A DNA stretch of 64,000 nt, from IMG/VR virus record IMGVR_UViG_3300042449_000787. One strand, given 5' to 3'. The translations under genes and the position numbers were made by a program. This DNA comes from an uncultured virus (IMG/VR IMGVR_UViG_3300042449_000787). Its lineage: Duplodnaviria > Heunggongvirae > Uroviricota > Caudoviricetes. The notes below the pieces were generated by a model that saw only the letters and a program-made list of their open reading frames with translations, did no database searches and was not told the DNA's origin. Position 1 is the first letter of the stretch. Each line of letters starts with the position of its first letter. Positions 2,314-44,477 of this stretch are shown here, piece after piece.

Positions 2314-3042
2314 ATGGAAATAACAAAACCAATTATCTTTTTTGACTTAGAAACTACGGGAGTTGAAATAAACACCGCTAGGATAGTTCAAATAGCTTGT
2401 ATTAAAATAAATGCAGATGGTAGTAAAGAGGAAAAAGAAATCCTAATCAACCCAACAATACCAATTCCAAAAGACGCTACCGAAGTTCATAATATTACCG
2501 ATGAAATGGTAAAGGATGCTCCAAAGTTTTTTAACATAGCTAAATCTTTATTTTCGTTCTTTGAAGGTTGCGATATTGCAGGATATAATTCCGATGCTTA
2601 TGATGTTCCACTTTTGTGTGAAGAGTTCGGTAGATGTAATATAGAATTTCCAACATGGGAGGTAAACCTTATTGATGTGCTAAAATACGAAAGGCTATTG
2701 AATCCAAACAACCTTGCTTCTGTTTACAAAAGATATACGGGCAAAGAATTAGATGGTGCGCATAATGCAATGAATGATGTTAGAGCAACATTTGAAATAT
2801 TAATGTGCCAATTAGAAGGTAAACAAGAACAAAGTCCAGAACAAATAGATTTGTATTGTCAAGGTGAAAGAAAACGATACGACATAGGTGGTAAAACTTA
2901 TATCGATAAAGAAGGTAACGTAAGATGGTCATTTGGTAAAAATATGCACAAGCTAGTATTGGATGATTTAGGCTATTATCAATGGGTGTTAAAAAACGAC
3001 TTTCCAACCGAGCTTAAAAACAAACTTAAAAAACTTAGTTAA
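2314..3042 (+). CDS. DEDDh 3'-5' exonuclease (DnaQ/PolIII-epsilon-like)
   Basis: FFDLETTG, GYNSDAYD, AHNAMND exo motifs I-III. Confidence 0.9.
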   Translation: MEITKPIIFFDLETTGVEINTARIVQIACIKINADGSKEEKEILINPTIPIPKDATEVHNITDEMVKDAPKFFNIAKSLFSFFEGCDIAGYNSDAYDVPLLCEEFGRCNIEFPTWEVNLIDVLKYERLLNPNNLASVYKRYTGKELDGAHNAMNDVRATFEILMCQLEGKQEQSPEQIDLYCQGERKRYDIGGKTYIDKEGNVRWSFGKNMHKLVLDDLGYYQWVLKNDFPTELKNKLKKLS

Positions 3043-3047
3043 AATAT

Positions 3048-3368
3048 ATGAAAAAGAAAGTTGTGTTTATAAAACTAGATGAATCATCGTCACTTTTTAA
3101 GGCTTTAAAGCAAAGAAATTTGATAGACTATAGAGGTTTTTTATCTTTATACTTAAATGATGTTCCGAGAATAGGAGAAAGCTTTACGCTTCCTTATGAT
3201 TCTATGACCTCTGAAAAAAACGAGATACTAAAATTATATCTTACAAAAAGACCACAAAATAAACCAATTATGAAAGTTGAAGATTTAATTATAGACCAAG
3301 TTTGCGCAGAATATAATTTGTACTACTTGAAATGTTCTTATATAAACGATACGAATAATTGGTTATAA
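3048..3368 (+). CDS. hypothetical protein; stop codon lies in the TAAC core of hairpin site 1
   Basis: ORF track; TAA 3366-3368. Confidence 0.6.
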   Translation: MKKKVVFIKLDESSSLFKALKQRNLIDYRGFLSLYLNDVPRIGESFTLPYDSMTSEKNEILKLYLTKRPQNKPIMKVEDLIIDQVCAEYNLYYLKCSYINDTNNWL

Positions 3369-3458
3369 CGTATGGTGCTATGAGCAGGTTTGCCTTGCAG
3401 AAATATTCAAATTTAGCACAAATGTTATTGGCAAACTTGCTTATAGCACGTGTTAGCA
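3363..3458 (+). repeat. attC-like hairpin site 1 (96 bp)
   Basis: TTATAAC, arm GTGCTATGAGCAGGTTTGCC (3375-3394) / GGCAAACTTGCTTATAGCAC (3430-3449), GTTAGCA. Confidence 0.8.
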
Positions 3459-3550
3459 GTAGTACGGTAATTAACCACAAATGCTCATTCGGAGAACCGA
3501 ACCTTTTTCTTTTCTTTTTTGAGCGAGGGCAAAAATATTAAAATAAAATT

Positions 3551-4459
3551 ATGACAATAGATTTAAGATACGGAGATGCAATAGAACAAATGAAATTGAT
3601 AGCAGATGAAAGTGTTGATGCTATAATTTCAGATATTCCTTATGGGATTTCATTTAGTGATTGGGATGTTAAACATTCTAATACCAATACTGCATTATTA
3701 GGGAGTTCCCCTGCACAACAAAATAGTAAAATATTTAAAAGTAGAGGTAAGCCTAAAAATGGATGGAGCGATAAAGACAAGCAAATAAGCATTGAATTTC
3801 AAATATTTTGCGAAAGTTTTTTAAAAGAGTGTTATCGAATTATGAAACCTGCATCTCCAATATTATGTTTTACAGGAAGGCAATATCAACATAGGTTTAC
3901 GGTTGCAGGAGAAAATAGCGGTCTAATATTAAAAGATGTACTTAGTTGGAATAAGAAAAAAGCACCATTTAAAGCACAAAGGATAGGTCAAGTAATAGGT
4001 AAAAGAAATTCAGATTATAGCGATAATAGAAGATTGGGTAATTTAGCACCAATAGTAGAACCAATTGTGTATATGTTTAAGCCATATAAGATTGGTGGAA
4101 CTATTACAGATTGTTATTTGAAGTATGGTACAGGTACTTTTTCTTCTGAAATTTACAAAACAAATTTAATTGAAGAAAGTTCGCATATTTCAGACAAGTT
4201 ACACGAAACCCAAAAGCCGTTAAAACTAATGGAAAACTTAATAAAAACTTTCACAAAAGAACATCAAACTATTTTAGATATGTTTGGTGGCTCAATGACA
4301 ACAGGAATTGCCTGTATAAACACAAATAGAAACTTTATCGGAATTGAGAATAATATGGATTATTTTAATATTTCTTTAAAGAGGGTGGAAGAAAAAAGAA
4401 AAGAAAAAGATTTAAAAAAATTGTGCGATGGTAAAAAAAGAATTTACAACAGAAATTAG
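3551..4459 (+). CDS. beta-class adenine DNA methyltransferase, M.HindIII-like
   Basis: DIPY catalytic motif, HETQKP, DMFGGS SAM motif; the AIISDIPYG..WD..HSNTN.AL.G...AQ....FK.RGKP.NGWS block resembles M.HindIII as recalled. Confidence 0.85.
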   Translation: MTIDLRYGDAIEQMKLIADESVDAIISDIPYGISFSDWDVKHSNTNTALLGSSPAQQNSKIFKSRGKPKNGWSDKDKQISIEFQIFCESFLKECYRIMKPASPILCFTGRQYQHRFTVAGENSGLILKDVLSWNKKKAPFKAQRIGQVIGKRNSDYSDNRRLGNLAPIVEPIVYMFKPYKIGGTITDCYLKYGTGTFSSEIYKTNLIEESSHISDKLHETQKPLKLMENLIKTFTKEHQTILDMFGGSMTTGIACINTNRNFIGIENNMDYFNISLKRVEEKRKEKDLKKLCDGKKRIYNRN

Positions 4460-4631
4460 CAATGAACTAATGAACATTTATTTGTTGCTTGGAATTGACA
4501 AACCGACTAATCACGAAGATATTATTCAGTTTGTTTCAGAAGATGTGGAAGCATCAACAAATGCAGAAACATATACAAGTGAGGACATAAAAATTGCATT
4601 TAGAAGATTAATTGAAACTTATGAATACTAA
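4428..4631 (+). CDS. hypothetical protein (67 aa) within cassette 1
   Basis: ORF overlapping both flanking MTases. Confidence 0.6.
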   Translation: MVKKEFTTEISNELMNIYLLLGIDKPTNHEDIIQFVSEDVEASTNAETYTSEDIKIAFRRLIETYEY

Positions 4632-5463
4632 CTTAATATTTGGAGATTGCCAAGAATATTTACCAAAACTTGAAAGTGAAAGTTTTGATTTAATCCTTTG
4701 CGATTTACCATACGGAACAACAAGGCTGAAATGGGATTGTCCGATTGATTTAGAATTTTTGTTTGGTGAATATGAAAGATTAATTAAACCAAAAGGTGCG
4801 ATTGTACTATTCGGAAACCAACCATTTACAAGTAAATTGATAATGACAAGACCTTCCTTGTACAAATATAGTTGGATATGGGTAAAGCCATTTCCTACGG
4901 GGTTTTTAAATGCAAATTACAGACCGATGCTTTCTTTCGAGGATATACTTGTATTTAGTAAAAGTGGTGCAGGTGCAGGAAGTAAAGACAATAATATGAA
5001 TTACTATCCACAAGGATTGATAGAGATAAATAAGAAGAAGAAAAACAAGAAAGGTACGAGAGGTCAACACATACACGATACTGTTAATTGCGGAATACAA
5101 AATGTTTTGAATAGTGAAAAAGAGTATCAGCAAAAATTTACAGGTTATCCGAATAATATTTTAGAATGTGATAGAGATGAACCGCAATTGCACCCAACTC
5201 AAAAACCGTTATTATTGATTGAATACTTGATTAAAACATACTCAAAAGAAGGAGGTAATGTTTTGGATAATACTATGGGAAGCGGAACGGTTGGTGTTGG
5301 TTGCAAAAATTTAAAAAGAAACTTTGTAGGGATGGAAAACAAAAAGGAATATTTTGACATAGCAAACGAAAGAATACTAACGGCTGTGATAACAGACGAA
5401 AAAGAAGGGGAAAATTTTTTAAAATCTTTTTCTCCACAAACTTTATTCGGAGATGAAAAGTAG
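4612..5463 (+). CDS. beta-class N4-C/N6-A DNA methyltransferase
   Basis: CDLPYG, HPTQKP, DNTMGSG. Confidence 0.92.
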   Translation: MKLMNTNLIFGDCQEYLPKLESESFDLILCDLPYGTTRLKWDCPIDLEFLFGEYERLIKPKGAIVLFGNQPFTSKLIMTRPSLYKYSWIWVKPFPTGFLNANYRPMLSFEDILVFSKSGAGAGSKDNNMNYYPQGLIEINKKKKNKKGTRGQHIHDTVNCGIQNVLNSEKEYQQKFTGYPNNILECDRDEPQLHPTQKPLLLIEYLIKTYSKEGGNVLDNTMGSGTVGVGCKNLKRNFVGMENKKEYFDIANERILTAVITDEKEGENFLKSFSPQTLFGDEK

Positions 5464-5469
5464 TATTGT

Positions 5470-5562
5470 TGGTAACGTTATCGGGCTTGGCGAAGGTGGG
5501 CTTGTAGGATGCTCAATTTTAGCAGAATGTTTCTGCCCACTTTTGCCAAACCCGTGTTACCT
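5470..5562 (+). repeat. attC-like hairpin site 2 (93 bp)
   Basis: TGGTAAC, arm CGGGCTTGGCGAAGGTGGGC / GCCCACTTTTGCCAAACCCG, GTTACCT. Confidence 0.8.
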
Positions 5563-5628
5563 GCTGGTGCGGTTAATTCAGGATAAACTTGATACGAAGA
5601 ACGAAACAAAAATTTTAAATAAAAAAGC

Positions 5629-6438
5629 GTGGGAAATTTTAACTTAGATACAGACGAACAAAAAGAATGGTATGGTATAAGCACTAACCGAAGTAGTGAA
5701 CACTTAGGGGATTGCTTAGAATTGATGCCATTGATAGCAGATGAAAGTATTGATTTGATACTTTGCGACTTGCCATACGGCACTACTCAAAACAAATGGG
5801 ATAGCGTTATTCCACTTGATAAACTTTGGAAAGAGTATGAAAGAATTATAAAGCCTAATGGTGCTATTATTTTAACAAGTGCTGAACCATTTACAAGTGC
5901 TTTAGTAATGAGCAATCCAAAACTATTTAGGTATGATATAATTTGGGAAAAGCAGAAAGGAAGTGACCCATTAAATGCCAATAGAAAACCATTACGAAGC
6001 CACGAAAATATACTTGTATTCTACAAGAAACAACCAACATACAACCCACAATTTGAACAAGGCGAACCATATATTAGAAAAGGTGATTGTAGGGTTAAAT
6101 CAAGCAATTTCAACGAAGCAAAAACTATAAACGATAGAGGTAGTGAAGATGGCAAACGATACCCCAAAACCGTTGTAAAGTTTAGTGGCGAAGGAATGAA
6201 CTCAAACAACTTGCACCCTACACAAAAGCCACAAAATTTAATGGAGTATTTGATTAAACAATATAGCAACGAAAACGAAATAATACTTGACAATACGGCA
6301 GGAGTATTTACAACTGCAATAGCTTGTTTAGAAACGAATAGAAAGTATATTGTAATGGAGCAAGAAAAGGAATACTACAGCAAAGGATTAAAACGAATAC
6401 TTGAATGGGAACGAGAACAAAAAACAAAATTGTTTTGA
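5629..6438 (+). CDS. beta-class N4-C/N6-A DNA methyltransferase
   Basis: CDLPYG, HPTQKP, DNTAG; GTG start uncertain. Confidence 0.9.
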   Translation: MGNFNLDTDEQKEWYGISTNRSSEHLGDCLELMPLIADESIDLILCDLPYGTTQNKWDSVIPLDKLWKEYERIIKPNGAIILTSAEPFTSALVMSNPKLFRYDIIWEKQKGSDPLNANRKPLRSHENILVFYKKQPTYNPQFEQGEPYIRKGDCRVKSSNFNEAKTINDRGSEDGKRYPKTVVKFSGEGMNSNNLHPTQKPQNLMEYLIKQYSNENEIILDNTAGVFTTAIACLETNRKYIVMEQEKEYYSKGLKRILEWEREQKTKLF

Positions 6439-6516
6439 AAAAACAAAAGTGCGATGGCTTTTTATTTAAAATTTTCTTTCACAAATGTTCAATAGTAGCA
6501 GTATCGTAGCACTTGC

Positions 6517-6646
6517 AGGTAACGGTCGGGTATTGCCGAAGGTGGGGCATAGTACCACAAATGTTGATTAAACCACTAAAGTTAAATAGATGCAGAATGT
6601 TGAAAATATAGATGTCAGCCCCACTTTTGGCAATACAGTGTTACCT
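6517..6646 (+). repeat. attC-like hairpin site 3 (130 bp)
   Basis: AGGTAAC, arm GTATTGCCGAAGGTGGGGC / GCCCCACTTTTGGCAATAC, GTTACCT. Confidence 0.8.
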
Positions 6647-7249
6647 GCCGTTGTGGGTTCTCAAACGAAATACCGAACAATAGTAGCAGACCCACCTTGG
6701 AAGTATGGTAAATGGGGTAAAGCATCTGACAGCCCTTTAGCAAGAAAGAAGTTCCCAAATGGACAATGGGAAAAAGATTTTGATATACCATACCAAACGA
6801 TGGGTATTGAAGAAATTAAGGCTTTAAATGTAGCAAATTTAGCAGATGATAATTGCGAGTTGTATTTATGGACTACCCAAAAATATTTACCTGATGCTTT
6901 TGAAGTATTGAAGGCTTGGGGTTTCAAGTATTGCCAAACATTGACTTGGTGTAAAACACCACGAGGAACTGGACAAGGTGGAGTATATTGCCCTACAACC
7001 GAATTTTTAATACTTGGGAGAAAAGGTAAAGCACCAAAAGTAAAACGAATAGATACAACTTGGTGGAATGTAAAAAGAACAAGTAATCATTCTAAAAAGC
7101 CTGAATTTTTTCAAGACTTAATCGAAACGGTTTCAGATGCTCCACGATTAGAAATGTTTGCAAGGCGTGAACGTGTCGGATGGGATATTTGGGGCAATGA
7201 ATTAGAGAATGATGTCGAATTGGAAACGTCTGCTAACAATGGCAGGTAA
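6590..7249 (+). CDS. MT-A70 family adenine methyltransferase
   Basis: ADPPW, LYLWTT, HSKKP, LEMFAR, GWDIWGNE; starts in the loop of site 3 and stops in the TAAC of site 4. Confidence 0.92.
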   Translation: MQNVENIDVSPTFGNTVLPAVVGSQTKYRTIVADPPWKYGKWGKASDSPLARKKFPNGQWEKDFDIPYQTMGIEEIKALNVANLADDNCELYLWTTQKYLPDAFEVLKAWGFKYCQTLTWCKTPRGTGQGGVYCPTTEFLILGRKGKAPKVKRIDTTWWNVKRTSNHSKKPEFFQDLIETVSDAPRLEMFARRERVGWDIWGNELENDVELETSANNGR

Positions 7250-7376
7250 CGGCAAAGTATAACTGTCAGGTGGGGGATTAAATGCACCGAACCTTCACAT
7301 TGACACTAAACTAAATTAGGAGCAGATAGCTTCGGGTGGTTAATCAGCCCCCACTTGCAGTTATACAATGTTATGG
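7244..7376 (+). repeat. attC-like hairpin site 4 (133 bp)
   Basis: AGGTAAC, arm GTATAACTG(T)CAGGTGGGGG / CCCCCACTTGCAGTTATAC with bulged T, GTTATGG. Confidence 0.8.
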
Positions 7377-7399
7377 GCTGGTGTTTAATACTTATTTTT

Positions 7400-7531
7400 A
7401 TGACAGCAACAGATGAAAAGTATGTTGAAATTCTAAAAGCCGTTTTACAATCTGAAAAAGTTTGGGAACGAAACGATTTACTATCGGCTTTCAAGAAAGC
7501 ATTAGCCAAAAAGAAAACGGCTAAAAAGTAA
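7400..7531 (+). CDS. 43-aa basic peptide forming mini-cassette 4 (MTATDEKYVEILKAVLQSEKVWERNDLLSAFKKALAKKKTAKK)
   Basis: Read manually; only ORF between sites 4 and 5. Confidence 0.55.
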   Translation: MTATDEKYVEILKAVLQSEKVWERNDLLSAFKKALAKKKTAKK

Positions 7532-7565
7532 CTGTTATAGGGTGGGTGTGCTTCGGTACACTTGC

Positions 7566-7695
7566 CCATAACGTTTGGTATAAGACCAGTAGCGGAATAG
7601 AAATTACAAACTTTCAAAATTAAACGAATGAATATAGAAACCACAAACTCCCCGAATACCACCGAAACCGCTATTGGTTTTATACCGTGTTATGC
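7566..7695 (+). repeat. attC-like hairpin site 5 (130 bp)
   Basis: CCATAAC, arm GGTATAAGACCAGTAGCGG / CCGCTATTGGTTTTATACC, GTTATGC. Confidence 0.8.
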
Positions 7696-8452
7696 ACAGG
7701 TTTTTTTAGGTGATTGCTTGGAACTATACAAGAATATAGAACCGAAAAGTATTGATTTAATTTTAACCGATTTGCCTTATGGTACAACCGCCTGTAAATG
7801 GGATACAATAATCCCATTTGACAAACTTTGGGAAATGGTTAATTACTTACTTAAACCAAACGGAGCATTTATTACAACTGCTTCGCAACCATTTACAAGT
7901 GCTTTGGTAATGAGTAACCCAAAGATGTTTAAGTATGAATGGATTTGGGATAAAGTACAACCAACTGGAGCATTTAACGCAATTAAGCAACCAATGAAAC
8001 TACATGAAAATATTTTAGTATTTTACAATGAACAGCCAATTTATAATAGACAAATGACTGATAGACCGCTAAAAGATTTAAGACCAAACCAAATTAAAAC
8101 TACTAAAAAACTGGATAAAATAGAATATGAATATTTGGGCGGACAAAAGAAACAATACTCTGAAAATTGGGATTATACCAAAGTAAACCCAAAAACTATT
8201 ATTCAATTTCAAAAATCTGCTGAAAGATTTAAGGAATTTAAACACCCTACACAAAAACCAATAGCGTTATTTGAATACTTACTAAAAACATACAGCAATG
8301 AAGGAATGACAATATTCGACCCTTGTATGGGTTCAGGAACTACTGGAATAGCTTGTAAAATCACCAACCGAAACTTTATTGGAATAGAGAAAGACGAAGC
8401 ATATTTCAAAATCGCAGAACAGCGAATAAATGCACGAACGTTGTTTCCTTAA
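7628..8452 (+). CDS. beta-class N4-C/N6-A DNA methyltransferase
   Basis: TDLPYG, HPTQKP, DPCMGSG; ATG in the loop of site 5. Confidence 0.92.
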   Translation: MNIETTNSPNTTETAIGFIPCYAQVFLGDCLELYKNIEPKSIDLILTDLPYGTTACKWDTIIPFDKLWEMVNYLLKPNGAFITTASQPFTSALVMSNPKMFKYEWIWDKVQPTGAFNAIKQPMKLHENILVFYNEQPIYNRQMTDRPLKDLRPNQIKTTKKLDKIEYEYLGGQKKQYSENWDYTKVNPKTIIQFQKSAERFKEFKHPTQKPIALFEYLLKTYSNEGMTIFDPCMGSGTTGIACKITNRNFIGIEKDEAYFKIAEQRINARTLFP

Positions 8453-8461
8453 ACTTGTGCA

Positions 8462-8498
8462 TAACTAATTGCTAACCGCATAAAATGTATTACAAAAT
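8462..8498 (+). repeat. non-palindromic attI-like site, copy 1
   Basis: TAACTAATTGCTAACCGCATAAAATGTATTACAAAAT; 33/37 identical to 9516-9552. Confidence 0.6.
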
Positions 8499-8682
8499 GG
8501 CAAAAATACTAACAAAAACAAAGGTCATAAGGATTACAGGAACACAACATAAAACACTTCAAAAAATGAAGTCTTACAATGTTGATATAGGTAAGTTTAT
8601 AAGAGATTCGATAAGTGAAAAAATTAAAAGAGAATATCAAGATTTAATACCCAAACCAAATAAAATTATTATACCTTTCTAA
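8485..8682 (+). CDS. small DNA-binding protein, probably ribbon-helix-helix
   Basis: KVIRIT strand followed by two helices (..KFIRDSISEKI). Confidence 0.6.
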   Translation: MYYKMAKILTKTKVIRITGTQHKTLQKMKSYNVDIGKFIRDSISEKIKREYQDLIPKPNKIIIPF

Positions 8683-8735
8683 CAATTATAAATAAATAAA
8701 AATAATTTTAAACCAAACTTAAAAATTAAAAACAA

Positions 8736-9518
8736 ATGATTGATAGAATTACTGAACAGCCATTTTGCCAAACCCGTGTTAGTGGCAGTACTTTTGTAAA
8801 CGCTGATTGCTTTGATGTTTTTCCTTTTATTGAGGATAAATCAATAGATGCTATTATTTGCGATTTACCTTATGGAACAACCGCTTGTAAATGGGACAGT
8901 ATTTTACCTTTAGACAAACTTTGGAATGAGTATAAAAGGATAATAAAAGATAATTGCCCGATTGTTTTATTTGCTCAAATACCATTTGATAAAGTACTTG
9001 GTTGCTCTAATTTAGAATGGTTAAAATACGAATGGATTTGGGAAAAATCAAAAGCAAGTAATTTTTTACAAGCTAAATATATGCCGATGCGAGTACACGA
9101 AAATATTTTGATATTTTGCAATGGTAAGGCTAATTATTTCCCACAAAAAACAGAAGGTAAAGCATATAGAACAAGAAAAATAAATGAGAAACACGGCAAC
9201 CCTGATGCGTACAACAATATTCCTAATTATATGAATAGAGAGCCAATTGAGATGAATGGAAGACTACCAAGAACTGTTCAATATTTTAAAACGGCACATA
9301 CAGAAGGGAAGCTACACCCAACATTAAAACCTTTAGAACTTATGGAATACCTTGTAAAAACCTACACAAACGAAGGAGATATGGTTTTAGATAATACAAT
9401 GGGTTCGGGAACAACAAACTTGGCTTGTATAAAATTAAATCGCAAATCAATAGGGATAGAAAAGGAAAAAAAATATTACGATGTCGCTGTTCGGAGGGCT
9501 TCGGAGTATTGCCACTAA
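8736..9518 (+). CDS. beta-class N4-C/N6-A DNA methyltransferase
   Basis: CDLPYG, HPTLKP, DNTMGSG; N-terminus reads through a half hairpin site. Confidence 0.92.
   Translation: MIDRITEQPFCQTRVSGSTFVNADCFDVFPFIEDKSIDAIICDLPYGTTACKWDSILPLDKLWNEYKRIIKDNCPIVLFAQIPFDKVLGCSNLEWLKYEWIWEKSKASNFLQAKYMPMRVHENILIFCNGKANYFPQKTEGKAYRTRKINEKHGNPDAYNNIPNYMNREPIEMNGRLPRTVQYFKTAHTEGKLHPTLKPLELMEYLVKTYTNEGDMVLDNTMGSGTTNLACIKLNRKSIGIEKEKKYYDVAVRRASEYCH
8763..8784 (+). repeat. half attC-like site (right arm only)
   Basis: TTTTGCCAAACCCGTGTTA identical to 5541-5559 of site 2. Confidence 0.7.
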
Positions 9519-9552
9519 CTACCTGCTAACTGCATAAAATGTATTATAAAAT
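9516..9552 (+). repeat. non-palindromic attI-like site, copy 2
   Basis: TAACTACCTGCTAACTGCATAAAATGTATTATAAAAT. Confidence 0.6.
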
Positions 9553-9586
9553 CATAAAAAAACAAACTTAAAAAACTTAATTAAAA

Positions 9587-14670: not shown

Positions 14671-15315
14671 ATGCAAATAAATCAAGAAATAAAACTAATA
14701 TTAGCTATACCCACACTAAACAGAGCAGACCTACTAAACGAAGCTTTAGAACAATATTTTGAAGACTTTAAAGATACCGATATTGCAATATGCGATAATG
14801 GAAAACAAGATATTATTACAAGGGAAGAAAACTTTATGATTTACAGACCAGAAGCTAATCTTGGGGTTGCTAGTAGTTGGAATATGCTAATGGATTATGC
14901 TGATAAAATTAAAGCTACTCATGTATTAATGCTAAACGATGATGTTATTCTAGGTAAAGCTGAACATGAAATAAAATTATTGATTAATAGCAATCCGAAT
15001 GTTGATTTTATAAACTCTATGCAGAATTGGTGTAGCTATATTTTAAAAGTAGATATGTGGAAGAAAGCAGGTAAGTTTGATGAAGAGTTTTTTCCAGCCT
15101 ATTTCGAAGACAATAGTTTTGATTACAAAATGAGTTTGAATAACGCTAGTAAAGTATGGACATCTTTTTTAAATCCTAAAGTGTATCGTAATTCAATGAC
15201 TATCGCCAAAAATCCCTTGTTAAATAATGGATTTGCAAAGAATAGAGCCTTATATGTGCAAATGTGGGGAGGATTGCCAACAGAAGAAGTTTATAAAACC
15301 AAATTTAATAAATAA
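14671..15315 (+). CDS. glycosyltransferase family 2-like
   Basis: IPTLNR, CDNG, NLGVASSWN, LNDD, FDEEFFPAYFED. Confidence 0.85.
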   Translation: MQINQEIKLILAIPTLNRADLLNEALEQYFEDFKDTDIAICDNGKQDIITREENFMIYRPEANLGVASSWNMLMDYADKIKATHVLMLNDDVILGKAEHEIKLLINSNPNVDFINSMQNWCSYILKVDMWKKAGKFDEEFFPAYFEDNSFDYKMSLNNASKVWTSFLNPKVYRNSMTIAKNPLLNNGFAKNRALYVQMWGGLPTEEVYKTKFNK

Positions 15316-15318
15316 ATC

Positions 15319-15996
15319 ATGGACGACTTAACCCCTTTTCAAAGCCAAAATACCACTAATGAAGAAATGAATTTTGTTTTTAATAATGGTATTACAAACT
15401 ACATACATCCAACTGCCGTAATAGGCGAAAATGTTAAGCTAGGAGAGAATAATTACATTGGAGCTTTCTGCTACATTACTGGAGACACTGTAATTGGAAA
15501 TAACAATAGATTTGAAGCTTTTTGTTCAGTTGGAACTGAACCAGAGCATAAGGCTTATTTTGGCAAACCAAACAAAGGGGTTATCATCGGTAACGGTAAT
15601 GTTTTTAGGGAGTACGTTACTATTAATGCAGGTTGTGAAACACCTACAAAAATTAACGATGACGTGCTTATGCTTAAAGGAAGTCATATAGGGCATGATT
15701 CAACTATAATGAGTAATTCTACTTTAGCTTGTAATGTTTTAATAGCAGGACATTCCCTTATCGGAAGGTATGTAAACATGGGGCTTGGAAGCGTGTGCCA
15801 TCAATATTCAAGAATAGGTAGCGGAAGCATGATTGGAATGGGAACTGTAATTACCAAAAAAGTAAACCCTAAATGCTTTGGGTTATACGTTGGAACACCG
15901 CCACGTTGCTTAAAGATGAACGAACATTTGATGAAGCAATTTACCGAAGAACAGATAAAGTGGATGTGCGATGAGTTTGACGATTTAAAATTCTAA
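15319..15996 (+). CDS. LpxA-like hexapeptide-repeat acyltransferase
   Basis: IHPTAVIG, IGNGNVFREYVTINAG, HIGHD, HQYSRIG. Confidence 0.85.
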   Translation: MDDLTPFQSQNTTNEEMNFVFNNGITNYIHPTAVIGENVKLGENNYIGAFCYITGDTVIGNNNRFEAFCSVGTEPEHKAYFGKPNKGVIIGNGNVFREYVTINAGCETPTKINDDVLMLKGSHIGHDSTIMSNSTLACNVLIAGHSLIGRYVNMGLGSVCHQYSRIGSGSMIGMGTVITKKVNPKCFGLYVGTPPRCLKMNEHLMKQFTEEQIKWMCDEFDDLKF

Positions 15997-16218
15997 AAAT
16001 TATGAAAATAGAAAATAAAGTTCCATACTATAAATGGTCTTACGGAAAGTTTATTTTAGTAGGGTATGTTGAAAAAGATTGAAATTTAAAATTATGACAC
16101 CAAAAGAAAAATACATAGGAGCTTTTTTAGACGGATATTTTATAGATAAAAAGTTTGCTCAATATAATTTTGAATACATAAGAGCATTAGAAGATGGAGA
16201 GAAAAAAGCCAAAAAGAA

Positions 16219-16425
16219 ATGGAAGCAATACAAAAAACAGAAACTATAACCATAGAACAACAAGCTAGAAACTTAGTAAATGAAATGGCTGTTCATCATT
16301 GGAATAATGGTCTTTGTAATTATGAGGGGGCTAAACAGTGTGCATTGATAGCGATTAGACTACTTATCCTTCAAAATGGAAGTAAGAATTGCTACGATTT
16401 AAAAAAAGAAATAGAGAAACTATGA
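16219..16425 (+). CDS. hypothetical phage protein
   Basis: AKQCALIA..EIEKL type small phage ORF. Confidence 0.55.
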   Translation: MEAIQKTETITIEQQARNLVNEMAVHHWNNGLCNYEGAKQCALIAIRLLILQNGSKNCYDLKKEIEKL

Positions 16426-16694
16426 AACTAAAAGACAAATTTAAAATAATAAATTGTAAAGATTGTGATATGCCATATTGTGATATTAAATGTACAATAT
16501 TAGCACCAAGTGAATTAATCAAGTTAGAAAAAGTAGCAGATGATTTTGCTATTGGATTTGCAGAGTGGTGTGCTGATAACTATTTTCGAATGGGCAATAC
16601 ATCATTTTGGGCAGAATCATTAGATTGGGATGCTGAAGATAAACTAACTACAAAAGAACTATTAGAAATCTATAAAAAAGAAAAAGGACTATGA
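16422..16694 (+). CDS. hypothetical phage protein
   Basis: ORF 16389..16694; ATGA-coupled start at 16422 likelier. Confidence 0.55.
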   Translation: MKLKDKFKIINCKDCDMPYCDIKCTILAPSELIKLEKVADDFAIGFAEWCADNYFRMGNTSFWAESLDWDAEDKLTTKELLEIYKKEKGL

Positions 16695-16824
16695 GTGAGC
16701 AATTTATAGAGGGTCTATGTGAATGGCTGAAAGAAAATAAAGGAATTACTAAAATAAATCTTGACGACTTAGTTAGTTATATTCCAGAATATGAAAAATA
16801 TTTAGAGCGTAAATAAAAAGGATT

Positions 16825-17028
16825 ATGAGTACAATATTATTTGAATGTGATGCTACGGAATATGAGGTAATTCCACCCAAAGAGAATATTACCAATTGTT
16901 TTGCTTTGAATGACCAAGCAGTTATAATTAATTTATTGGATAAAAACGAAAAAGTAATTACACAAACAGAAATTGACAAATCCGATGCTATTGAGTTAGC
17001 TAGGTTAATTTTATTAAAATACACATAA
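16825..17028 (+). CDS. hypothetical protein
   Basis: ORF track. Confidence 0.55.
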   Translation: MSTILFECDATEYEVIPPKENITNCFALNDQAVIINLLDKNEKVITQTEIDKSDAIELARLILLKYT

Positions 17029-17029
17029 C

Positions 17030-17656
17030 ATGAGATTAACATTATCAATGCCTTGCTATGGCAGACCTGAAAGAACTATAAGGTCAATAAATTGTATTGC
17101 AAACCAAAACATAAATGGATGGGAAGCTCTTGTAATAGGAGATGGTTGCCCAATAATGCAAGATTTTATAGATAGCAATTACTTTTCGGATATTCAGAAG
17201 GATTGCGAAGCAAGAGGAAACGATTTTTACATATCGAATAACCTCATCAACAAAGGAGGTCACGGTTACGATATTACCAATATAAACATTCAGTTAGCAA
17301 TGGGTAAGTACTTTGTTTTCTATGCTAATGACGATATAATCCTACCTAATCACTTTGAGAATTATTTGTCGCAAATAGAAGGTACTGATTTGGACTTTGT
17401 TTATTTTGACAGCTTTGTCGCACCAAGAAACGCTACGAGAGTTGCTGAGTTGCAATACGGAAGAATAGGTCATAGCGAATTAATTGTTAGAACTGATTTT
17501 TTAAGACAAATGCCACCGCATAACGAACACTACGGACACGATTGGGCATTAATACAAAGTATGATGCAAAATGGAAAAAATAAGAAAGCTTTAAATTGCC
17601 CACAAACTTATAGGGTAATGAGTTTATCTGATAATAGAGAAAAAGGAATAGATTAA
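17030..17656 (+). CDS. glycosyltransferase family 2-like
   Basis: MPCYGR, IGDGC, ANDD, GHDW. Confidence 0.8.
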   Translation: MRLTLSMPCYGRPERTIRSINCIANQNINGWEALVIGDGCPIMQDFIDSNYFSDIQKDCEARGNDFYISNNLINKGGHGYDITNINIQLAMGKYFVFYANDDIILPNHFENYLSQIEGTDLDFVYFDSFVAPRNATRVAELQYGRIGHSELIVRTDFLRQMPPHNEHYGHDWALIQSMMQNGKNKKALNCPQTYRVMSLSDNREKGID

Positions 17657-17689
17657 CCAAGTAAAAATTAACGACTAAAAATAAAAAAA

Positions 17690-18910
17690 ATGGCAAGACC
17701 AAAGATTTCAACAGAAAAAGTATTATCAATTTTAATTGATGCTAAAAATGAAATGGAGTTAGGTACATTCAACTCAGTTTTATTTACTAACAATAACAGT
17801 GCTTGGAGTATTTTAAGACCTATATTGATGCAAAAAGGAATAATAAAAAAAGTTAACAATAAATATAAATGGATTAGCATCAATCCTAATGTTTATATGG
17901 CTAAAGAATTATATACAGCTTTTATACAAAAAAGAAATTTATACCCATCATCAATTATTAAACGAGAAGTTTCAATTTTAAAACGTAATAATATAAATTC
18001 TAAAGAAAAAAAACCTCTTACTCCAGAAAAAATATTAGACATATTGATTTTAGCTAAAGAACAAATGGATTTAGGAATAATGAATAGAGCTGTTTTTTAC
18101 GCAAATCATCCTCAGTGGGCGAGTATAAATTCAATATTAATTCGTCATGGAGTTATAAGAAAGGAATATGATAAATATAGATGGTTAGCATCCGCACCAG
18201 ATTTAAAAATGGCAAAAGGAGTTATAACTAACATAAAATACAAGTCGAATGAATCTCGTCTTAAAAAGAAAAATTATTCTAGGGAAACGATTGATAAAGT
18301 TTTGAAAAAATATAATATTTCACTTTTTGATTCAGTAGAACATGAATTAGATGAATTAAAAAAAGAATCTACTAAATCTAATTATGATGTAAATGATATG
18401 GAATTATTTTTTGATGATAAATCAAAAAAAGGATATATAGCTACGGATAGCTTTTCTGATAAGATTTACACACTATATGACAAACCAAATAATCCTCAAC
18501 CTGAAGTCAGTATTAATCCTTCAGAAGAGTGTTATAGATTAGCAAAAATTATTTCCGAGAATGAAGAGCTAATAAATATTCAAAAAGAAACAATAGCAAA
18601 GCAAACTGAAAAACTGTCTGAACAAGAAAAATATATTACTGAAACAAATAAAGTAATGCGTAGTTATTTAGACGATATTGATATTTTAGAAAAAGAGTTT
18701 GTTGAATTGAAAAGAAGCATAGGGGCTTATAGAGAAGAGAGAGATGAATTATATGGAATAATGGAAAATGATAAACAAAATATAGATACCTTAGAAAAAG
18801 ATATTATTGACCTTAAAGAAAACATCAAAAATCAAAACAATCTTTACATCAAGCCAAATTCTAAAAAAATAAAATTCTTTGGAATACCAGTTTATTCAGT
18901 AGAATATTAA
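17690..18910 (+). CDS. protein with two repeated N-terminal domains (EKVLSIL..AK.. KYKW) and a C-terminal coiled coil
   Basis: Internal duplication visible in translation. Confidence 0.65.
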   Translation: MARPKISTEKVLSILIDAKNEMELGTFNSVLFTNNNSAWSILRPILMQKGIIKKVNNKYKWISINPNVYMAKELYTAFIQKRNLYPSSIIKREVSILKRNNINSKEKKPLTPEKILDILILAKEQMDLGIMNRAVFYANHPQWASINSILIRHGVIRKEYDKYRWLASAPDLKMAKGVITNIKYKSNESRLKKKNYSRETIDKVLKKYNISLFDSVEHELDELKKESTKSNYDVNDMELFFDDKSKKGYIATDSFSDKIYTLYDKPNNPQPEVSINPSEECYRLAKIISENEELINIQKETIAKQTEKLSEQEKYITETNKVMRSYLDDIDILEKEFVELKRSIGAYREERDELYGIMENDKQNIDTLEKDIIDLKENIKNQNNLYIKPNSKKIKFFGIPVYSVEY

Positions 18911-18950
18911 TAGATTTGTAGAAAATATGTTTACGGGCATATTTTTTCAT

Positions 18951-19021
18951 TGGCTTATGGTGTAACGGTAACACAACTGTTTTTGGTGCAGTCTTTCTAG
19001 GTTCGAATCCTTGTAAGCCAA
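18951..19021 (+). tRNA. trnQ: tRNA-Gln (UUG), CCA not encoded
   Basis: Acceptor TGGCTTA/TAAGCCA, anticodon loop TTTTGGT, T-loop GGTTCGAATCC. Confidence 0.93.
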
Positions 19022-19045
19022 CTAAATTAAACTTAAACAACAAAT

Positions 19046-20329
19046 ATGGAAAAATCTAAATTAAAAGCAGTCAAAGGGAAAAGTAATGTTCAAAAATCAC
19101 TATTGCTTTACGCTGACTTTGGATGTACTACTGGCTTTGCAAATGTAGCTAAGTCACTTGTTGACGAATGGAAGAAAGATAAAAACCTAAGCATTGTTAT
19201 CTTTGCAATAAACGATAAAAGCCCTAAGATTTATGATTACGCACCTAATGTAAAAGTAATACCTTCTCTTATAATTGGAAATGGAAGCACTGATGTATAT
19301 AGGAGAATTGAACTTCTTAATTTGATTTATCAAAACGACTTTGATGTAATATTTATGCTTAACGATGTTGAGGTAATCAATGCTATGCACCCAAACTTAA
19401 AGGAAGTAAAAAATAAAAAGAGAGAGGAAAATAGACCTAACTTTAAATCAATTATTTATTTTCCAATAGATAGTGAGCCAAGAATGGCAGACTTAAAAGT
19501 ACTTGACTTTTTTGACGAGGTAATTACTTATACAGAATACGCCAAGTCAGTAATGAAACCATTGCTTTCAGATACCCAATTCAAAAAGATTAAGGTAATA
19601 CCACATGGTACGAATACAGACGATTTCTACCCTTACAAGCAAAAAGCAAAGCTTGACGCTAAAGTAGAAATTTTCGGAAGCGAAGATGTTTTTGTCTTTG
19701 GTAGCGTTAACAGAAATCAGGTAAGAAAGGATATGGGGGCTTTAATTATCGGATTCGCTATGTTCAAGCATACAAGTCAAGCAAATGCCGTGCTTTACCT
19801 GCACTGTAACCCAATCGACCCTATGGGTATTAACATTCCTAGACTATGCGATAGGGTTGGTCTTGAAATAGGTAAAGATGTTATAATTCCTAAAGATTTT
19901 TCAGAAAACAACGGAACTAGCATTGAAGAGTTAAATAAGATATACAACTCTTTTGACTGCTTTATAACCACTACAACATCCGAAGGTTGGGGATTGACTA
20001 TAACAGAAGCTATGGCTACTAAAACGCTTGTGGTTTGCCCAAAACACACTTCTATTACAGAAATAACCAATAATGGCGAAAATAGCTTAAACTTTATGTT
20101 TAGTCAACAAGCGGTGTTTGTAAACGACTTTGAGAAAATAAGGTTTGTAACTAATCCAATGGAAGTTAAAACGATACTAGAGGTTGTATTGAATCTTAAA
20201 AATGAAGAACCAGATGTGCAGTTAATAGTGAAGAAAAAAATAGAAGATGCTTACGAAAAAGTTTCAGCAATGAAATGGGATGGAATAGCAAAAAGATTTA
20301 AAACAATTATCGATAAATTAGCGAAATAA
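19046..20329 (+). CDS. GT-B glycosyltransferase (family 4-like)
   Basis: TGFANV, IPHG, VNRNQVRK, EGWGLTITEAMA (EX7E). Confidence 0.88.
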   Translation: MEKSKLKAVKGKSNVQKSLLLYADFGCTTGFANVAKSLVDEWKKDKNLSIVIFAINDKSPKIYDYAPNVKVIPSLIIGNGSTDVYRRIELLNLIYQNDFDVIFMLNDVEVINAMHPNLKEVKNKKREENRPNFKSIIYFPIDSEPRMADLKVLDFFDEVITYTEYAKSVMKPLLSDTQFKKIKVIPHGTNTDDFYPYKQKAKLDAKVEIFGSEDVFVFGSVNRNQVRKDMGALIIGFAMFKHTSQANAVLYLHCNPIDPMGINIPRLCDRVGLEIGKDVIIPKDFSENNGTSIEELNKIYNSFDCFITTTTSEGWGLTITEAMATKTLVVCPKHTSITEITNNGENSLNFMFSQQAVFVNDFEKIRFVTNPMEVKTILEVVLNLKNEEPDVQLIVKKKIEDAYEKVSAMKWDGIAKRFKTIIDKLAK

Positions 20330-20723: not shown

Positions 20724-20754
20724 TTTGTAGTGTCATTTGAATTATTTATATTTG
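20724..20754 (+). promoter_or_regulatory. Bacteroidota-type promoter (TTTG-19nt-TATATTTG)
   Basis: Consensus match; implies the giant ORF starts at ATG 20775. Confidence 0.65.
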
Positions 20755-20774
20755 CTACTTATGTTAAAAAAACT

Positions 20775-23700
20775 ATGAATAAAGAGAAATTAACTGAAAA
20801 TAAAGCCGAAGCAACTCCAAGCGGAGGTGTGCTTATAGGCAAGAGGGAAGGTCAAACCATGATTCACAGCAAAGGCTCCTTATCTGGATATTTGGTTGGT
20901 AGAACTCATGCGGAAGGCGGAATAAAGGCTATCAATAAATCTACTGGACAGCCATTGGAAATGCAGGGAGGCGAGGTGGTTATAACAGCACCAGCCGTTA
21001 GCGATACTACAAAAAGGGAATTTGAAGGTAGGATGATGACAAATAGGGAAATTTTGTCTGAAATAAATGAAAACGGAGGTGGTGTTTCATTTGCCTATGG
21101 CGGTAATATACCTACTGAAATGCACTTTAGCGGTAATTCCTATAAGTATGGAGGTAAAACTGTTTCAGACCATGATATAGCTTATGAAATAAGTATTTGT
21201 GGTTGTGAGCATGATATTTTAGGCGATGGTGGTAAAATAGGAGATATGCCTACTTCTATCAAAAAGAAAGTCTTTACCCCAGACGGTGAGAGAAAAATTA
21301 CTCCAGTTGCAATTTCTATATTGACAAACTATGTGAACTCTTTACCTCAAACAAAGGAACTTAATACCGATTCAAAAGGCAACTACACAAAAGAAAGACA
21401 AGAGCTTCATAAAAAAATAATCAATGAATTTAAGGATGAATTAGTTTGTATTCAAAAAGAAGAGCCTATTGCTATTTTAATGGGTGGTTCACCTGCAAGT
21501 GGTAAAAGCACATTTTTAAGAAAATATGCGCCTTATTTACTTGAAGAAGAAATATTAAAAGTAGATGCTGATGAAATTAGAGCTATGTTGCCAGAATACA
21601 AAGGCTACAACGCTACTCAAACTCATCTTGAAACAAAAGATATTGTCAATACGCTACTAAGCGACAAAACTATTGGTATTCCTTGTAAATACGATATAAT
21701 TTATGATGGAACAATGAATAGTACCAAAAGCTACTTGCCTTTGATTGCTTTGCTAAAATCTTTGGGCTATAAGATTTTTATAGTTTACATAGATAATGTG
21801 CCAGAAGAGGTTGTAAAGAAAAGAGCCTTGGAAAGATATAAAAAAAGCGGAAGGTTTGTTCCAATGGAAGTTATTGACGATTTTTATGGAAAAGGAAAAG
21901 TCGCACTAGAAGAATTAAAATTAAAATCCGATGGGTACATGATAATCGATGGCTCAAGTGGAGATTATAACATTTTAGAAAAAAAGGGTCTTAGGCTACC
22001 AAAAAAGAGGTTGTATTCAAAGCTAGGAGAGCCTATATCTAAACTAGAGCAGTTGGTTCATGGTGGTCATTTGTCAAAAGGTATGTCTTTAAAACAAATT
22101 GCTAAAATGCACGGGGTATCTTTTCTCAAATTGAATAGACAAGTAAAGATGGGATTAAATGCCGAGAGTGAGCATACTCCTAAAGTTACAGAACAAATGA
22201 AGATTGTAAAAGACCACTTGTACGAAAATCCTAATTATTATACGTTACTTAAAGAAGCAGGTTTAGAAAAAGGAGGAAGTTTAAACGGTATTTCCGATTT
22301 GAGTCAAAAAGATTTACAATTATATGACAGAGCTTCTAATGTTAGACCGAGAGATGTAAATCAAAACAATCGGTATCATAGTTATTTAGGATTAAGTGTT
22401 TACACTACTTCTGAAAATAGAAATAATATTTTTATAGAAAATGTAGATAAAGTTTTTCATAACGTAGATGATGCTGAAAAATATATCGAAGGTAACGACA
22501 TGGAAGAATCTAAAATTCCTTTTTGGATAGGTACAGAAAAAAGATATTATGAATTATATCCAGAAAAAAAAGGTCTTTATAAAAAAGGTGGTGAAGTTGA
22601 TTATGTAACTTATAAAGATAAATACAACAAAAAATATAATTACGATAAAAACACTTCTCACGATTTAGATGAAATTTCGAAAGATACTGGAGTTTCGCTA
22701 AAAGGTTTACAGCAAATTTACAATAAGGGAATAGGTGCATATAAAACTAATCCTTCAAGCGTAAGACCTAATGTAAAGTCAAAAGAGCAATGGGCAATGG
22801 CTAGGGTGTATAGTGCAGTAATGGGTGGTAAAGCATCAGAAGTAGATTCTAATGAATTAAAAATGAACTATGGTGGAAGATTTCGTAAAGACAACCTTGT
22901 AAAAGATGCCGAAAATGGAAACACACCAGCAAGAGACTTTAATAACTATAACGATGTTATGGATATTCACGCAGATGGAGCTGTTGGTGGGGATAGTGGT
23001 ATTTTTGCAAACGGAGGTGCTTTAGGAACTTCGGGATTGCCTTTGGTTGATTATATTGAAATAACATCTTCTGGAAGTAGCCTTGTTAATATTGTTGGAG
23101 TTCAGGCTGATAACTTTGAAAGTTTTAAAAATATTGTTTTTGGAGAGTATAAATTGACACAAAAACCTAGAAGTTTTGTAAATATTCAAGCGTATGACTC
23201 GGAAGGTAATAAATTGACAAGTGCTAGTTCAGAAATTTCAGACCAAAAAAATACCGTAAAGAACTTTAATCCTTACACTGGCAAGCCTTCGGATTTAGCA
23301 AAGTCATTCGCTAAATCAAGACCAATCAACTTCAAAAAATACGATTGGAGTGAGTGGTTTTCAGGCAAGAAATCAATGCCTAGTAAACAAGCTTCTGCAA
23401 CTTCTAATTTAGTTACTGGTATTTATATTTCATACACTAACCCAACAAATAATAGTCTTAGCTCCTTTACCGTTGACAATGCTAGTGAGTTCTTATACAC
23501 TTTGCTAAACTTGTATAGAAATTCAATTACAAAAATAGATTATAGAATTATTGTAAATGGTAATATTTTAGAAGAAACTATTTCTGATTTAAAGTTAAAT
23601 GATGACGTAACTGATAATTGGAGATTGAACTCTAACACAATAAATCCTAAAGTAGCTACTCTTGATGATGTTGCATATAGGTTAGAAAAAGAAAATTCTT

Positions 23701-43811: not shown

Positions 43812-44477
43812 ATGGCAGATTATAAAAACATCGTTAGCTTTATAAAAGCAAGAGAGGGCGGTTTAAGTTCCGCCACAACAGATACGGCAAGTAGAAATTC
43901 TTCTAACTGTGGAAATGGCAGTAATATGAAACCTTATCATACAAACAAAGGAGTTACTTGGACAACTTTTACTTCTTTAGCAAGCAAATTAGGTTACAGT
44001 GCAACTTGCTCTAATTTCATGGCAATGCCAGATAGTATATGGTTGAAAATTTATAGAAGCTCTTATTGGAATCCAATGATGGGAGATAAAATTAAAAATC
44101 AGGCTGTTGCAAATGTTTTTGTGGAAATGGCATGGGGTTCTGGAGTGGGCGGTGCGACAAATGCTTTAAAGAAATTTTTCATTTCTAATTACAATAAAAG
44201 CTTTGTGGATGTTAGTGAAATGGTTAAGTATGTAAATGAGTTAGATTCAGAAGGCAAAAGCTCTGATTTATTTGAAAAATTAAATACTTATAGAAAATCT
44301 TTTTATAAAAGTCTTGGTCAGCCAGCAAATCTTACGGGATGGATAAATAGGTTAAACGCTTTCTATATTGTTAATAAACCTTATGCAATTAGCAAAAAAG
44401 AAAAAAAAATCGGAATTTTGGCAATATTATTAGTTATTATAGGAGGGTTATATTTATATAAAAAATTAAAGAAATAG
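43812..44477 (+). CDS. GH108-like lysozyme with C-terminal TM anchor
   Basis: REGG, TNKGVT, YW, GW.NRL motifs; terminal hydrophobic helix. Confidence 0.75.
   Translation: MADYKNIVSFIKAREGGLSSATTDTASRNSSNCGNGSNMKPYHTNKGVTWTTFTSLASKLGYSATCSNFMAMPDSIWLKIYRSSYWNPMMGDKIKNQAVANVFVEMAWGSGVGGATNALKKFFISNYNKSFVDVSEMVKYVNELDSEGKSSDLFEKLNTYRKSFYKSLGQPANLTGWINRLNAFYIVNKPYAISKKEKKIGILAILLVIIGGLYLYKKLKK

Follow-up and report, generated by a model that had tools for sequence, protein, structure and literature searches.

A probable integrase-less array of mobile, integron-like cassettes in the genome of an uncultured phage

Six DNA methyltransferase genes (five N6_N4 and one MT-A70, by Pfam) and three small open reading frames (ORFs) occupy positions 3366-9575 of a 64,000-nucleotide stretch of an uncultured virus of the Caudoviricetes (IMG/VR record IMGVR_UViG_3300042449_000787; this whole stretch is hereafter called the window), and long imperfect hairpins bounded by TAAC and GTTA are found between them. 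This locus raises the question of whether the genes are cassettes exchanged at the hairpins, as in an integron, and of which enzyme might exchange them. A preliminary description of the window had proposed a virus-borne, integron-like cassette array dedicated to methyltransferases. Our analysis indicates that the region is probably an array of mobile cassettes that has no integrase of its own and belongs to an integron-like system common to Flavobacteriia and their phages. The array works like an integron, and most like a cluster of attC sites lacking integrases (CALIN). By definition, however, it falls outside the integron family, since the feature that marks an IntI integrase was not found. 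The source, a freshwater phage of Flavobacterium type, has a genome of about 101 kb; the closest related record (G001; 101,210 bp, CheckV 100%, rated complete) shares 96% of the sampled words of the window, and the stretch is contained in lake and freshwater metagenomes dated 2016-2024.

Predicted folding energies of the five hairpins of the window (Table 1) range from −32 to −54 kcal/mol with RNA parameters and from −16 to −25 kcal/mol with DNA parameters, and the only mismatches in their stems, read on the + strand, are G.T. When both strands of the 64-kb window were searched with our own covariance model, trained on 38 related hairpins from phages and bacteria, these five sites were the only matches, with 52-102 bits on the + strand and at most 30 bits on the − strand, and the same five hairpins and no others were matched in G001. 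Compensatory changes were found in 16 of 16 variable pairs across the 38 hairpins, in which 91.4% of the cells were paired (shuffled partners, 64%; slid partners, about 40%), a share that is partly built in since the hairpins had been chosen by a stability scan. The + strand folded more stably in 48 of 53 phage hairpins. The preliminary description had placed a hairpin between all the genes; five imperfect TAAC...GTTA hairpins are present, but the junction of cassettes E and F keeps only a 3' part (about 8705-8781). It had also located stop codons within the TAAC cores, and these are found at 3366-3368, 7247-7249, and 9516-9518.

With invariant AAC and GTT cores, and with structure conserved rather than sequence, the five sites have the properties of attC-type sites, and they differ from classical attC in their spacer asymmetry and 15-bp outer pairing. 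If the hairpins count as attC-type sites, five of them in 4.3 kb with no integrase in 101 kb constitute a CALIN. A search of the window against Rfam at the gathering level returned a tRNA only, and at E ≤ 1 only chance-level matches were obtained on the array and on one host array. The loops of the 120-130-nt hairpins (e.g., 6555-6615) contain two or three loose repeat units of about 18 nt, like CCACAAATGTTGA. A loop motif, CA..AA..GTT, was dropped as a claim, its enrichment being weak (0.37 vs 0.09 per hairpin over shuffles).

As in integrons, the boundaries of the cassettes lie in the core, and the first bases of a cassette pair with its own end. This pairing was scored out of 11, between the 11 bases that follow GTTA and the 11 bases that precede the next TAAC. 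The mean score of 43 distinct cassettes from the window and related contigs was 7.88, compared to 4.67 for shuffled partners, and was reached by none of 10,000 shuffles; 22 of the 43 cassettes scored at least 9.5. Pairing across the same site, and not within the same cassette, averaged 4.65 of 11 (55 site flanks). The consensus is NNNN-TTG-NNNN-TAAC at the end of a cassette and GTTA-NNNN-CAG-NNNN at its start, with a fixed G.T. This arrangement is found again in many contigs of Flavobacteriaceae phages. In a homologue of cassette F carried by Flavobacterium phage vB_FspS_mymlan6-1, both ends have changed together (GCCGC/GCGGC vs GTGGC/GCCAC). The earlier claim that each cassette start complements its own end thus holds for five of the six cassettes of the window, at 9.5-10.5, and less well for cassette A, at 7.5. 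The poor match of cassette A is explained by its being a fusion of two cassettes. A single-gene homologue in mymlan6-1 (L001) carries a matching end, and, in one lake-metagenome contig, the stretch 3451-4410 is followed by an alternative 46-letter end, which is then joined to position 8462.

We then compared the positions at which related arrays diverge, as the preliminary description had advised. A cassette of the F type was found at 11 loci, and thus in at least 10 contexts other than the window. Nine left and eleven right boundaries were aligned: homology begins between TAAC and a following G and ends right after ...CACTAAC, and beyond these points the sequences are unrelated. The linkage between hairpins and genes was analyzed at 79 sites in 30-nt flank windows, at ≥80% identity. 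Right arms were similar in 32 pairs, of which 22 also shared the sequence after GTTA; left arms were similar in 24 pairs, none of which shared the sequence before TAAC. Linkage across GTTA and not across TAAC indicates that the hairpin travels with the downstream gene and that the 5' TAAC is the point of exchange. Whole-body identity was too strict a test of linkage and left only one pair. The right ends of similarity blocks fell at most 8 nt from a TAAC boundary in 14 of 60 cases (1.6% by chance), while left ends were less sharp (4 of 62 at each core) and only three blocks were shared between loci at ≥90% identity.

The lake metagenomes were compared as contigs, parts without cover carrying no weight. 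Contigs diverge from the window exactly at 5473, 5559, 6520, and 8782, and one variant contig is without 4411-8461 and 8697-9581. Homology among relatives thus stops at the TAAC cores and cassettes are found in new contexts, in line with the earlier proposal, and most block ends are intragenic. Cassette F itself seems to have reached the window by homologous recombination, because the left arm of its hairpin has been lost, a repeat of flank X1 follows it (the first 60 bases of X1 recur at 9516-9575 with 80% identity), and the variant contig lacks exactly 8697-9581; the joint of that contig shows a 7-letter shared motif. In another lake contig, the front of the methyltransferase of cassette B (5779-6258) is joined to the tail of that of cassette F (9363-9519) at a conserved motif region, so that two paralogous cassettes have formed a natural chimera. 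Just 5' of start codons, in ordinary intergenic spaces as well as inside hairpin loops, an A-rich motif (AAACTTAAAAA...TTAAAAA) was observed (3020-3045, 8712-8735, and 9560-9586). The deletion of cassette F in the variant contig is bounded by this motif, which may function as a translation start region and also as a hotspot of homologous exchange.

Hairpins of the same family were also found in host-group chromosomes. The model matched 117 of 151 sampled genomes of the genus of L117 (titled Flavobacterium sp.) at E ≤ 1e-6; many of the 151 had at least 22 matches, and there were more than 1,000 overall, including isolated copies far from clusters. The Flavobacterium metagenome-assembled genome that contains L117 itself gave no match to the hairpin model. 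One Chryseobacterium genome carries about 38 sites. In a complete chromosome (G096; L177-L179), about 45 sites of uniform orientation are spread over 42 kb; each cassette has a single gene, and the array ends with an integrase. The folding strand of bacterial arrays is not the coding strand of their cassette genes, and in Chryseobacterium the integrase is divergent from these genes, as in a classical integron. One GNAT acetyltransferase cassette was observed three times in the G096 array (L177 12512-13066; L178 961-1515 and 11441-11995), and two further integrase homologues lie at its far end (L177 1-540 and 3648-4499).

Such a number of matches, including the isolated copies, could also be expected if the hairpins were a selfish dispersed repeat of Flavobacteriia (of the repetitive extragenic palindrome, bacterial interspersed mosaic element, or miniature inverted-repeat transposable element type) that had also invaded phages, the genes only looking like cassettes. 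However, the clustered copies are co-oriented and enclose single genes, the two ends of each gene pair, a feature that an inserted repeat would not produce, and whole units of hairpin and gene recur in new contexts. Neither a target duplication nor a transposase was seen. We regard this explanation as highly improbable.

The cargo of the arrays was also examined. Twenty-five of the 41 cassette ORFs of related phages encode DNA-modification enzymes, a share that is biased upward and that weakens the argument from cargo, as most phage loci had been found by a methyltransferase query. The 41 ORFs comprise 15 N6_N4, three C5, one Dam, and one weak D12 methyltransferase, two Mom, two PAPS-reductase-like, one TAGT, and one DUF4326 proteins, and 15 of unknown function. 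Among the 66 ORFs of host cassettes, 36 had no Pfam family, and the others encode GNAT acetyltransferases, glyoxalase/bleomycin-type proteins, hydrolases, proteins with a beta-lactamase fold, Mrr and GmrSD nucleases, a DndE-like ATPase, and regulators. The idea that anti-restriction methyltransferases are shuffled as cassettes is supported by the comparative evidence (six methyltransferases in the window, breakpoints at cores). Six such genes are present as described, but an array dedicated to methyltransferases is too narrow a definition, as cassette D holds a small ORF only and related phage arrays also include Mom, PAPS-reductase-like, and TAGT genes and many small genes of unknown function.

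Which enzyme could act on these sites? The preliminary description had found no recombinase in the window, which was borne out, and had invoked an IntI-like tyrosine recombinase of the host or encoded at a distance. None was found in G001; an XerA/IntI-like enzyme does adjoin arrays in related phages and in chromosomes of the host family, but it is not a canonical IntI. In related phage contigs (L007/L082, L009/L083, L085, and L086), a gene for a Xer-like tyrosine recombinase of 294-298 amino acids comes immediately after the last cassette, in the same orientation, and these recombinase-bearing phages are temperate. Three phage contigs have integrases that are 91-100% identical and an identical sequence from TAAC to the integrase gene, preceded by three different last cassettes, as is expected of an insertion site beside an integrase; the conserved junction fits a candidate attI, a site that the window does not have. 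The integrase-proximal junction sequence of L083 was absent from the 401 genomes searched, and neither an attB nor a prophage copy was identified there. A scan of bacterial genomes with these integrases yielded 80 loci, 54 of them with at least 3.9 kb of upstream DNA. Strict hairpins were present within 4 kb upstream of the integrase at 15 of the 80 loci, belonging to Chryseobacterium, Epilithonimonas, Cyclobacteriaceae, Bacteroidales, and others, and hairpin sites around the bacterial integrases were distributed as 26 upstream vs 2 downstream.

All array-linked integrases scored best on NF040815 (XerA/integron integrase), and their nearest solved structures were archaeal XerA and Vibrio IntI4 (2a3v; split match). 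They matched the IntI model TIGR02249 in two stretches, skipping model positions of about 180-250, with 133-211 bits for a cut-off of 265; the IntI-specific additional domain around patch III, by which an integron integrase is defined, is thus missing. This domain is described as necessary for attC recombination (PMC9668308), single-strand recombination is attributed to the I2 helix by Escudero et al. (2020), and the insertion is reported by Smyshlyaev et al. (2021; PMC8138268) not to be fully conserved in their 'integron-like' subgroup.

These data bear on the explanation that the cassettes are those of a classical integron and nothing else (a CALIN), taken up from bacteria and recombined by a canonical IntI that has the I2 domain. 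The AAC/GTT cores, the hairpin sites, and the own-end pairing are the grammar of classical attC. Moreover, Qi et al. (2023; PMC9892861) reported CALINs in phages, among them one in Polaribacter phage P12002L with two methyltransferases, in which HattCI and INFERNAL flagged two sites; attC1 was read with the gene-sense strand as bottom strand, and attC2 recombined with attI1 under IntI1. We found that the attC1 oligonucleotide is a hairpin of the family of the window, located between the two methyltransferase genes of P12002L, and that attC2 is the array-end junction read on the other strand. The true family hairpin, attC1, gave no verified recombinants with IntI1 in that study, the outer stem of the family has 15 bp and not 7, and every array-side integrase skips the insertion and falls below the cut-off of the IntI model. 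Furthermore, the portion of the IntegronFinder 2.0 article (PMC9024848) used here lists only In0 elements and one complete integron (Salinibacter) for Bacteroidetes, yet 117 of 151 genomes matched the hairpin model. A canonical IntI is therefore an unlikely explanation.

Several results weigh against an integron-like array, in addition to the two selection effects mentioned above. No tyrosine recombinase was found by Pfam among the 43 ORFs of the window, PF00589 gave no match in the 101,210 bp of G001 at E ≤ 1, and no recombinase was found in mymlan6-1. Where a recombinase adjoins an array, that of the temperate phages may simply be their lysogeny integrase, the linked enzymes are without the insertion deemed necessary in the literature for attC recombination, and attC1 failed with IntI1. 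The orientation of the integrase to the array varies (+ and downstream in Chryseobacterium and phages, − in the G096 chromosome), and two of four chromosomal clusters have no integrase in the stretch retrieved. About three quarters of the similarity-block ends fall inside genes, chimeric methyltransferase contigs occur in lake metagenomes, and one cassette body, 96% identical in two contigs, has different upstream hairpins. These last three observations indicate that homologous recombination also reshapes the arrays. Finally, contigs cannot show circles.

The signs of homologous recombination could also be taken to mean that all modularity comes from exchange between phages by this route at the conserved hairpins, these serving solely as RNA elements (terminators, RNase sites, mRNA stabilizers, or translation start platforms). 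On the coding strand, G.T is the only kind of mismatch in the stems, as it is in stems of RNA, the start codons of three genes lie in loops, and chimeric genes, an insertion of cassette F bounded by a 7-letter motif, and mostly intragenic block ends are compatible with this. However, the cassette genes of bacterial arrays are antisense to the stable strand, which their mRNA therefore does not contain, and a pairing of start and end over 0.2-2 kb with compensatory changes has no rationale in RNA. Polar arrays adjoining a recombinase, linkage that breaks sharply at TAAC, and the lack of an Rfam family match also speak against hairpins acting only in RNA, which we consider very unlikely.

For an integron-like array, the following mechanism can be proposed. 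The site structure, covariation, own-end pairing, core breakpoints, hairpin-downstream linkage, recombinase neighborhood, and cargo are established by the present data; the single-stranded substrate, the identity of the acting enzyme, the circles, and current activity are inferred. The mobile unit would be C-G...hairpin...GTTA + 11 nt ... gene ... 11 nt + TAA. In the excised circle, the two ends of the cassette and the hairpin would form one long imperfect hairpin. Its outer stem of 15 bp (TAAC/GTTA and 11 cassette-specific pairs, with the fixed G.T) would be followed by an unpaired spacer and then by an inner stem. The shape of this folded single strand would be recognized by a XerA/IntI-group tyrosine recombinase, which would cut it at the 5' TAAC core and join cassettes to each other or to a site beside its own gene. 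A crossover at the 5' TAAC would make this an integron seen from its bottom strand, except that the genes are reversed: phage genes are sense to the folding strand and often start in a loop, and those of host chromosomes are antisense, as in classical integrons. Such an array would let the phage stock DNA-modification genes against host restriction. As the phage has no recombinase, its cassettes would move only through an enzyme of the host or of a co-infecting temperate phage, or by homologous recombination.

A wider proposal is more tentative, our doubts slightly outweighing our confidence. These arrays could represent a very common and essentially undescribed integron-type exchange system of Flavobacteriia and their phages, served by XerA/IntI-like recombinases without the I2 helix. 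Host arrays of tens of cassettes, including some restriction genes, would face mirror-image arrays of DNA-modification genes in phages, the counter-defence cassettes of an integrase-less lytic phage being reshuffled by the recombinase of the infected host, so that attack and defence would share one cassette currency. Integrons had been reported as almost absent from Bacteroidetes, and here a site family with the full integron grammar is present in 117 of 151 sampled genomes of one genus and in many of the phages of this group. The IntI-specific domain is regarded as the innovation that enabled folded single-strand recombination, and the recombinases beside these sites lack it; if such an enzyme is active on them, the origin and the definition of integrons would need to be widened. 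The cassette pool of a whole phylum would become visible to annotation, and a concrete mechanism would be offered for the fast turnover of phage anti-restriction methyltransferases. The Muminvirus group and other isolated phages, with their Flavobacterium hosts, provide a tractable setting.

Table 1. Features of the array in the window. Methyltransferases were assigned by Pfam, and own-end pairing is scored out of 11.
Feature	Position	Strand	Content and evidence
Hairpin site 1	3366-3455	+	TAAC 3366-3369, GTTA 3452-3455; fold; covariance model 52.3 bits; left boundary of the array; core contains the stop codon of ORF 3048-3368
Cassette A	3452-5476	+	Fusion of two cassettes; own-end pairing 7.5
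ORFs of cassette A		+	N6_N4 methyltransferase 3551-4459; small ORF 4428-4631; N6_N4 methyltransferase 4612-5463
Hairpin site 2	5473-5559	+	Fold; covariance model 61.1 bits; loose contig ends exactly at 5473 and 5559
Cassette B	5556-6523	+	N6_N4 methyltransferase 5629-6438; own-end pairing 9.5
Hairpin site 3	6520-6643	+	Fold; covariance model 102 bits; loop contains the start codon of the next gene (6590)
Cassette C	6640-7250	+	MT-A70 methyltransferase 6590-7249; own-end pairing 10.5; stop codon within TAAC
Hairpin site 4	7247-7373	+	Fold; covariance model 52.9 bits
Cassette D	7370-7572	+	Small ORF only (within 7355-7531), without family match; own-end pairing 9.5
Hairpin site 5	7569-7692	+	Fold; covariance model 81.3 bits; loop contains the start codon of the next gene (7628)
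Cassette E	7689-8465	+	N6_N4 methyltransferase 7628-8452; own-end pairing 10.5; ends with TAAC 8462-8465
Flank X1 (non-cassette)	8466-8704	+	Occupies the expected place of the left arm of the next hairpin
ORF in X1	8485-8682	+	65 amino acids; phrog_25647, function unknown (PHROGs)
Truncated hairpin	8705-8781	+	What remains (loop, right arm) of the 120-nt hairpin found ahead of F-type cassettes elsewhere; cannot fold here
Model match of truncated hairpin	8705-8757	+	Partial, 15 bits (covariance model; alignment of F-type left boundaries)
Cassette F	8778-9519	+	N6_N4 methyltransferase 8736-9518; own-end pairing 10.5
Flank X2	9520-9575	+	Repeats the start of X1; right boundary of the array

The ORF of phrog_25647 follows the last hairpin-bounded cassette both here and in mymlan6-1 (L001 5257-5454), and, judging by its sequence pattern, it might encode a small DNA-binding protein. 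Outside the array, the source phage has genes for a polyvalent protein, lysins, a tRNA-Gln, and glycosyltransferases. A 1,933-amino-acid ORF (20730-26531) combines a Zeta-toxin-like kinase, DUF5824, DUF5661, and a C-terminal ART-PolyVal domain, and is a phage 'polyvalent' protein. A 2,575-amino-acid ORF without Pfam match (31500-39227) is followed by lysis-type genes (GH108, 43812-44477; glucosaminidase, 46674-47270). A protein with two PAS domains, a sensor-type domain that is unusual in a virus, is encoded at 52097-53212. A glycosyltransferase cluster with a hexapeptide acyltransferase surrounds the tRNA-Gln gene (14671-20329; tRNA, 18951-19022) and may serve the modification of DNA or surface sugars.

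Literature searches on Flavobacterium phage/methyltransferase/hairpin and on Flavobacteri* chromosomal integron attC returned no match, and no insertion-less integron-like system in Bacteroidota, nor any description of the extended system, was found in the literature searched, bioRxiv supplements aside. The closest known systems are compared here. Like sedentary chromosomal integrons, the present arrays have mostly single-gene cassettes, hairpins that are conserved in structure and variable in sequence, AAC/GTT cores, a cassette start that pairs with its own end, and one strand that folds better. The crossover is likewise placed, by inference, at the 5' AAC of the folding strand, and the site travels with one cassette. 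In relatives, a tyrosine recombinase lies at one end of the array beside a conserved junction with variable first cassettes, and the host cargo (GNAT, glyoxalase, unknowns, and some restriction genes) resembles that of chromosomal integrons. Unlike integrons, the linked recombinase is without the IntI insertion (I2 helix), the outer pairing extends over 15 bp with a fixed G.T instead of 7 bp, the extra unpaired bases are on the 5' arm of the hairpins, and in phages the folding strand is the sense strand of the cassette genes, which begin within the hairpin loop. The window itself has no recombinase.

The CTX phage of Vibrio cholerae integrates by the Xer-mediated recombination of folded single-stranded phage DNA. 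There, a hairpin of single-stranded DNA is the substrate of a Xer-type enzyme that has no IntI insertion, a point of resemblance to the system proposed here; the case differs in that a single dif-like site integrates the whole phage, and there are neither cassettes nor arrays. Orphan phage DNA methyltransferases were reportedly described as anti-restriction genes by Murphy and colleagues in 2013 and 2014. The cargo is alike, as is the likely benefit, the methylation of the phage's own DNA against host restriction enzymes, but these are fixed single genes, whereas here they would form a site-bounded, exchangeable array.

The CALIN of P12002L is an instance of the same system, and like the present array it is an integrase-less cluster in a lytic Flavobacteriaceae phage. 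Its short hairpins were missed by the TAAC..GTTA scan and by model R1 at E ≤ 0.001, and were recognized by reading the sequence. In the parts of PMC9892861 that were compared, two sites in one phage were taken as bacterial integron sites usable by IntI1, and their 'divergent directions' were noted. Relative to those parts, the present analysis adds the extended pairing of each cassette with its own end, the unit formed by a hairpin and its downstream gene, many phage and bacterial arrays, and a recombinase without the insertion.

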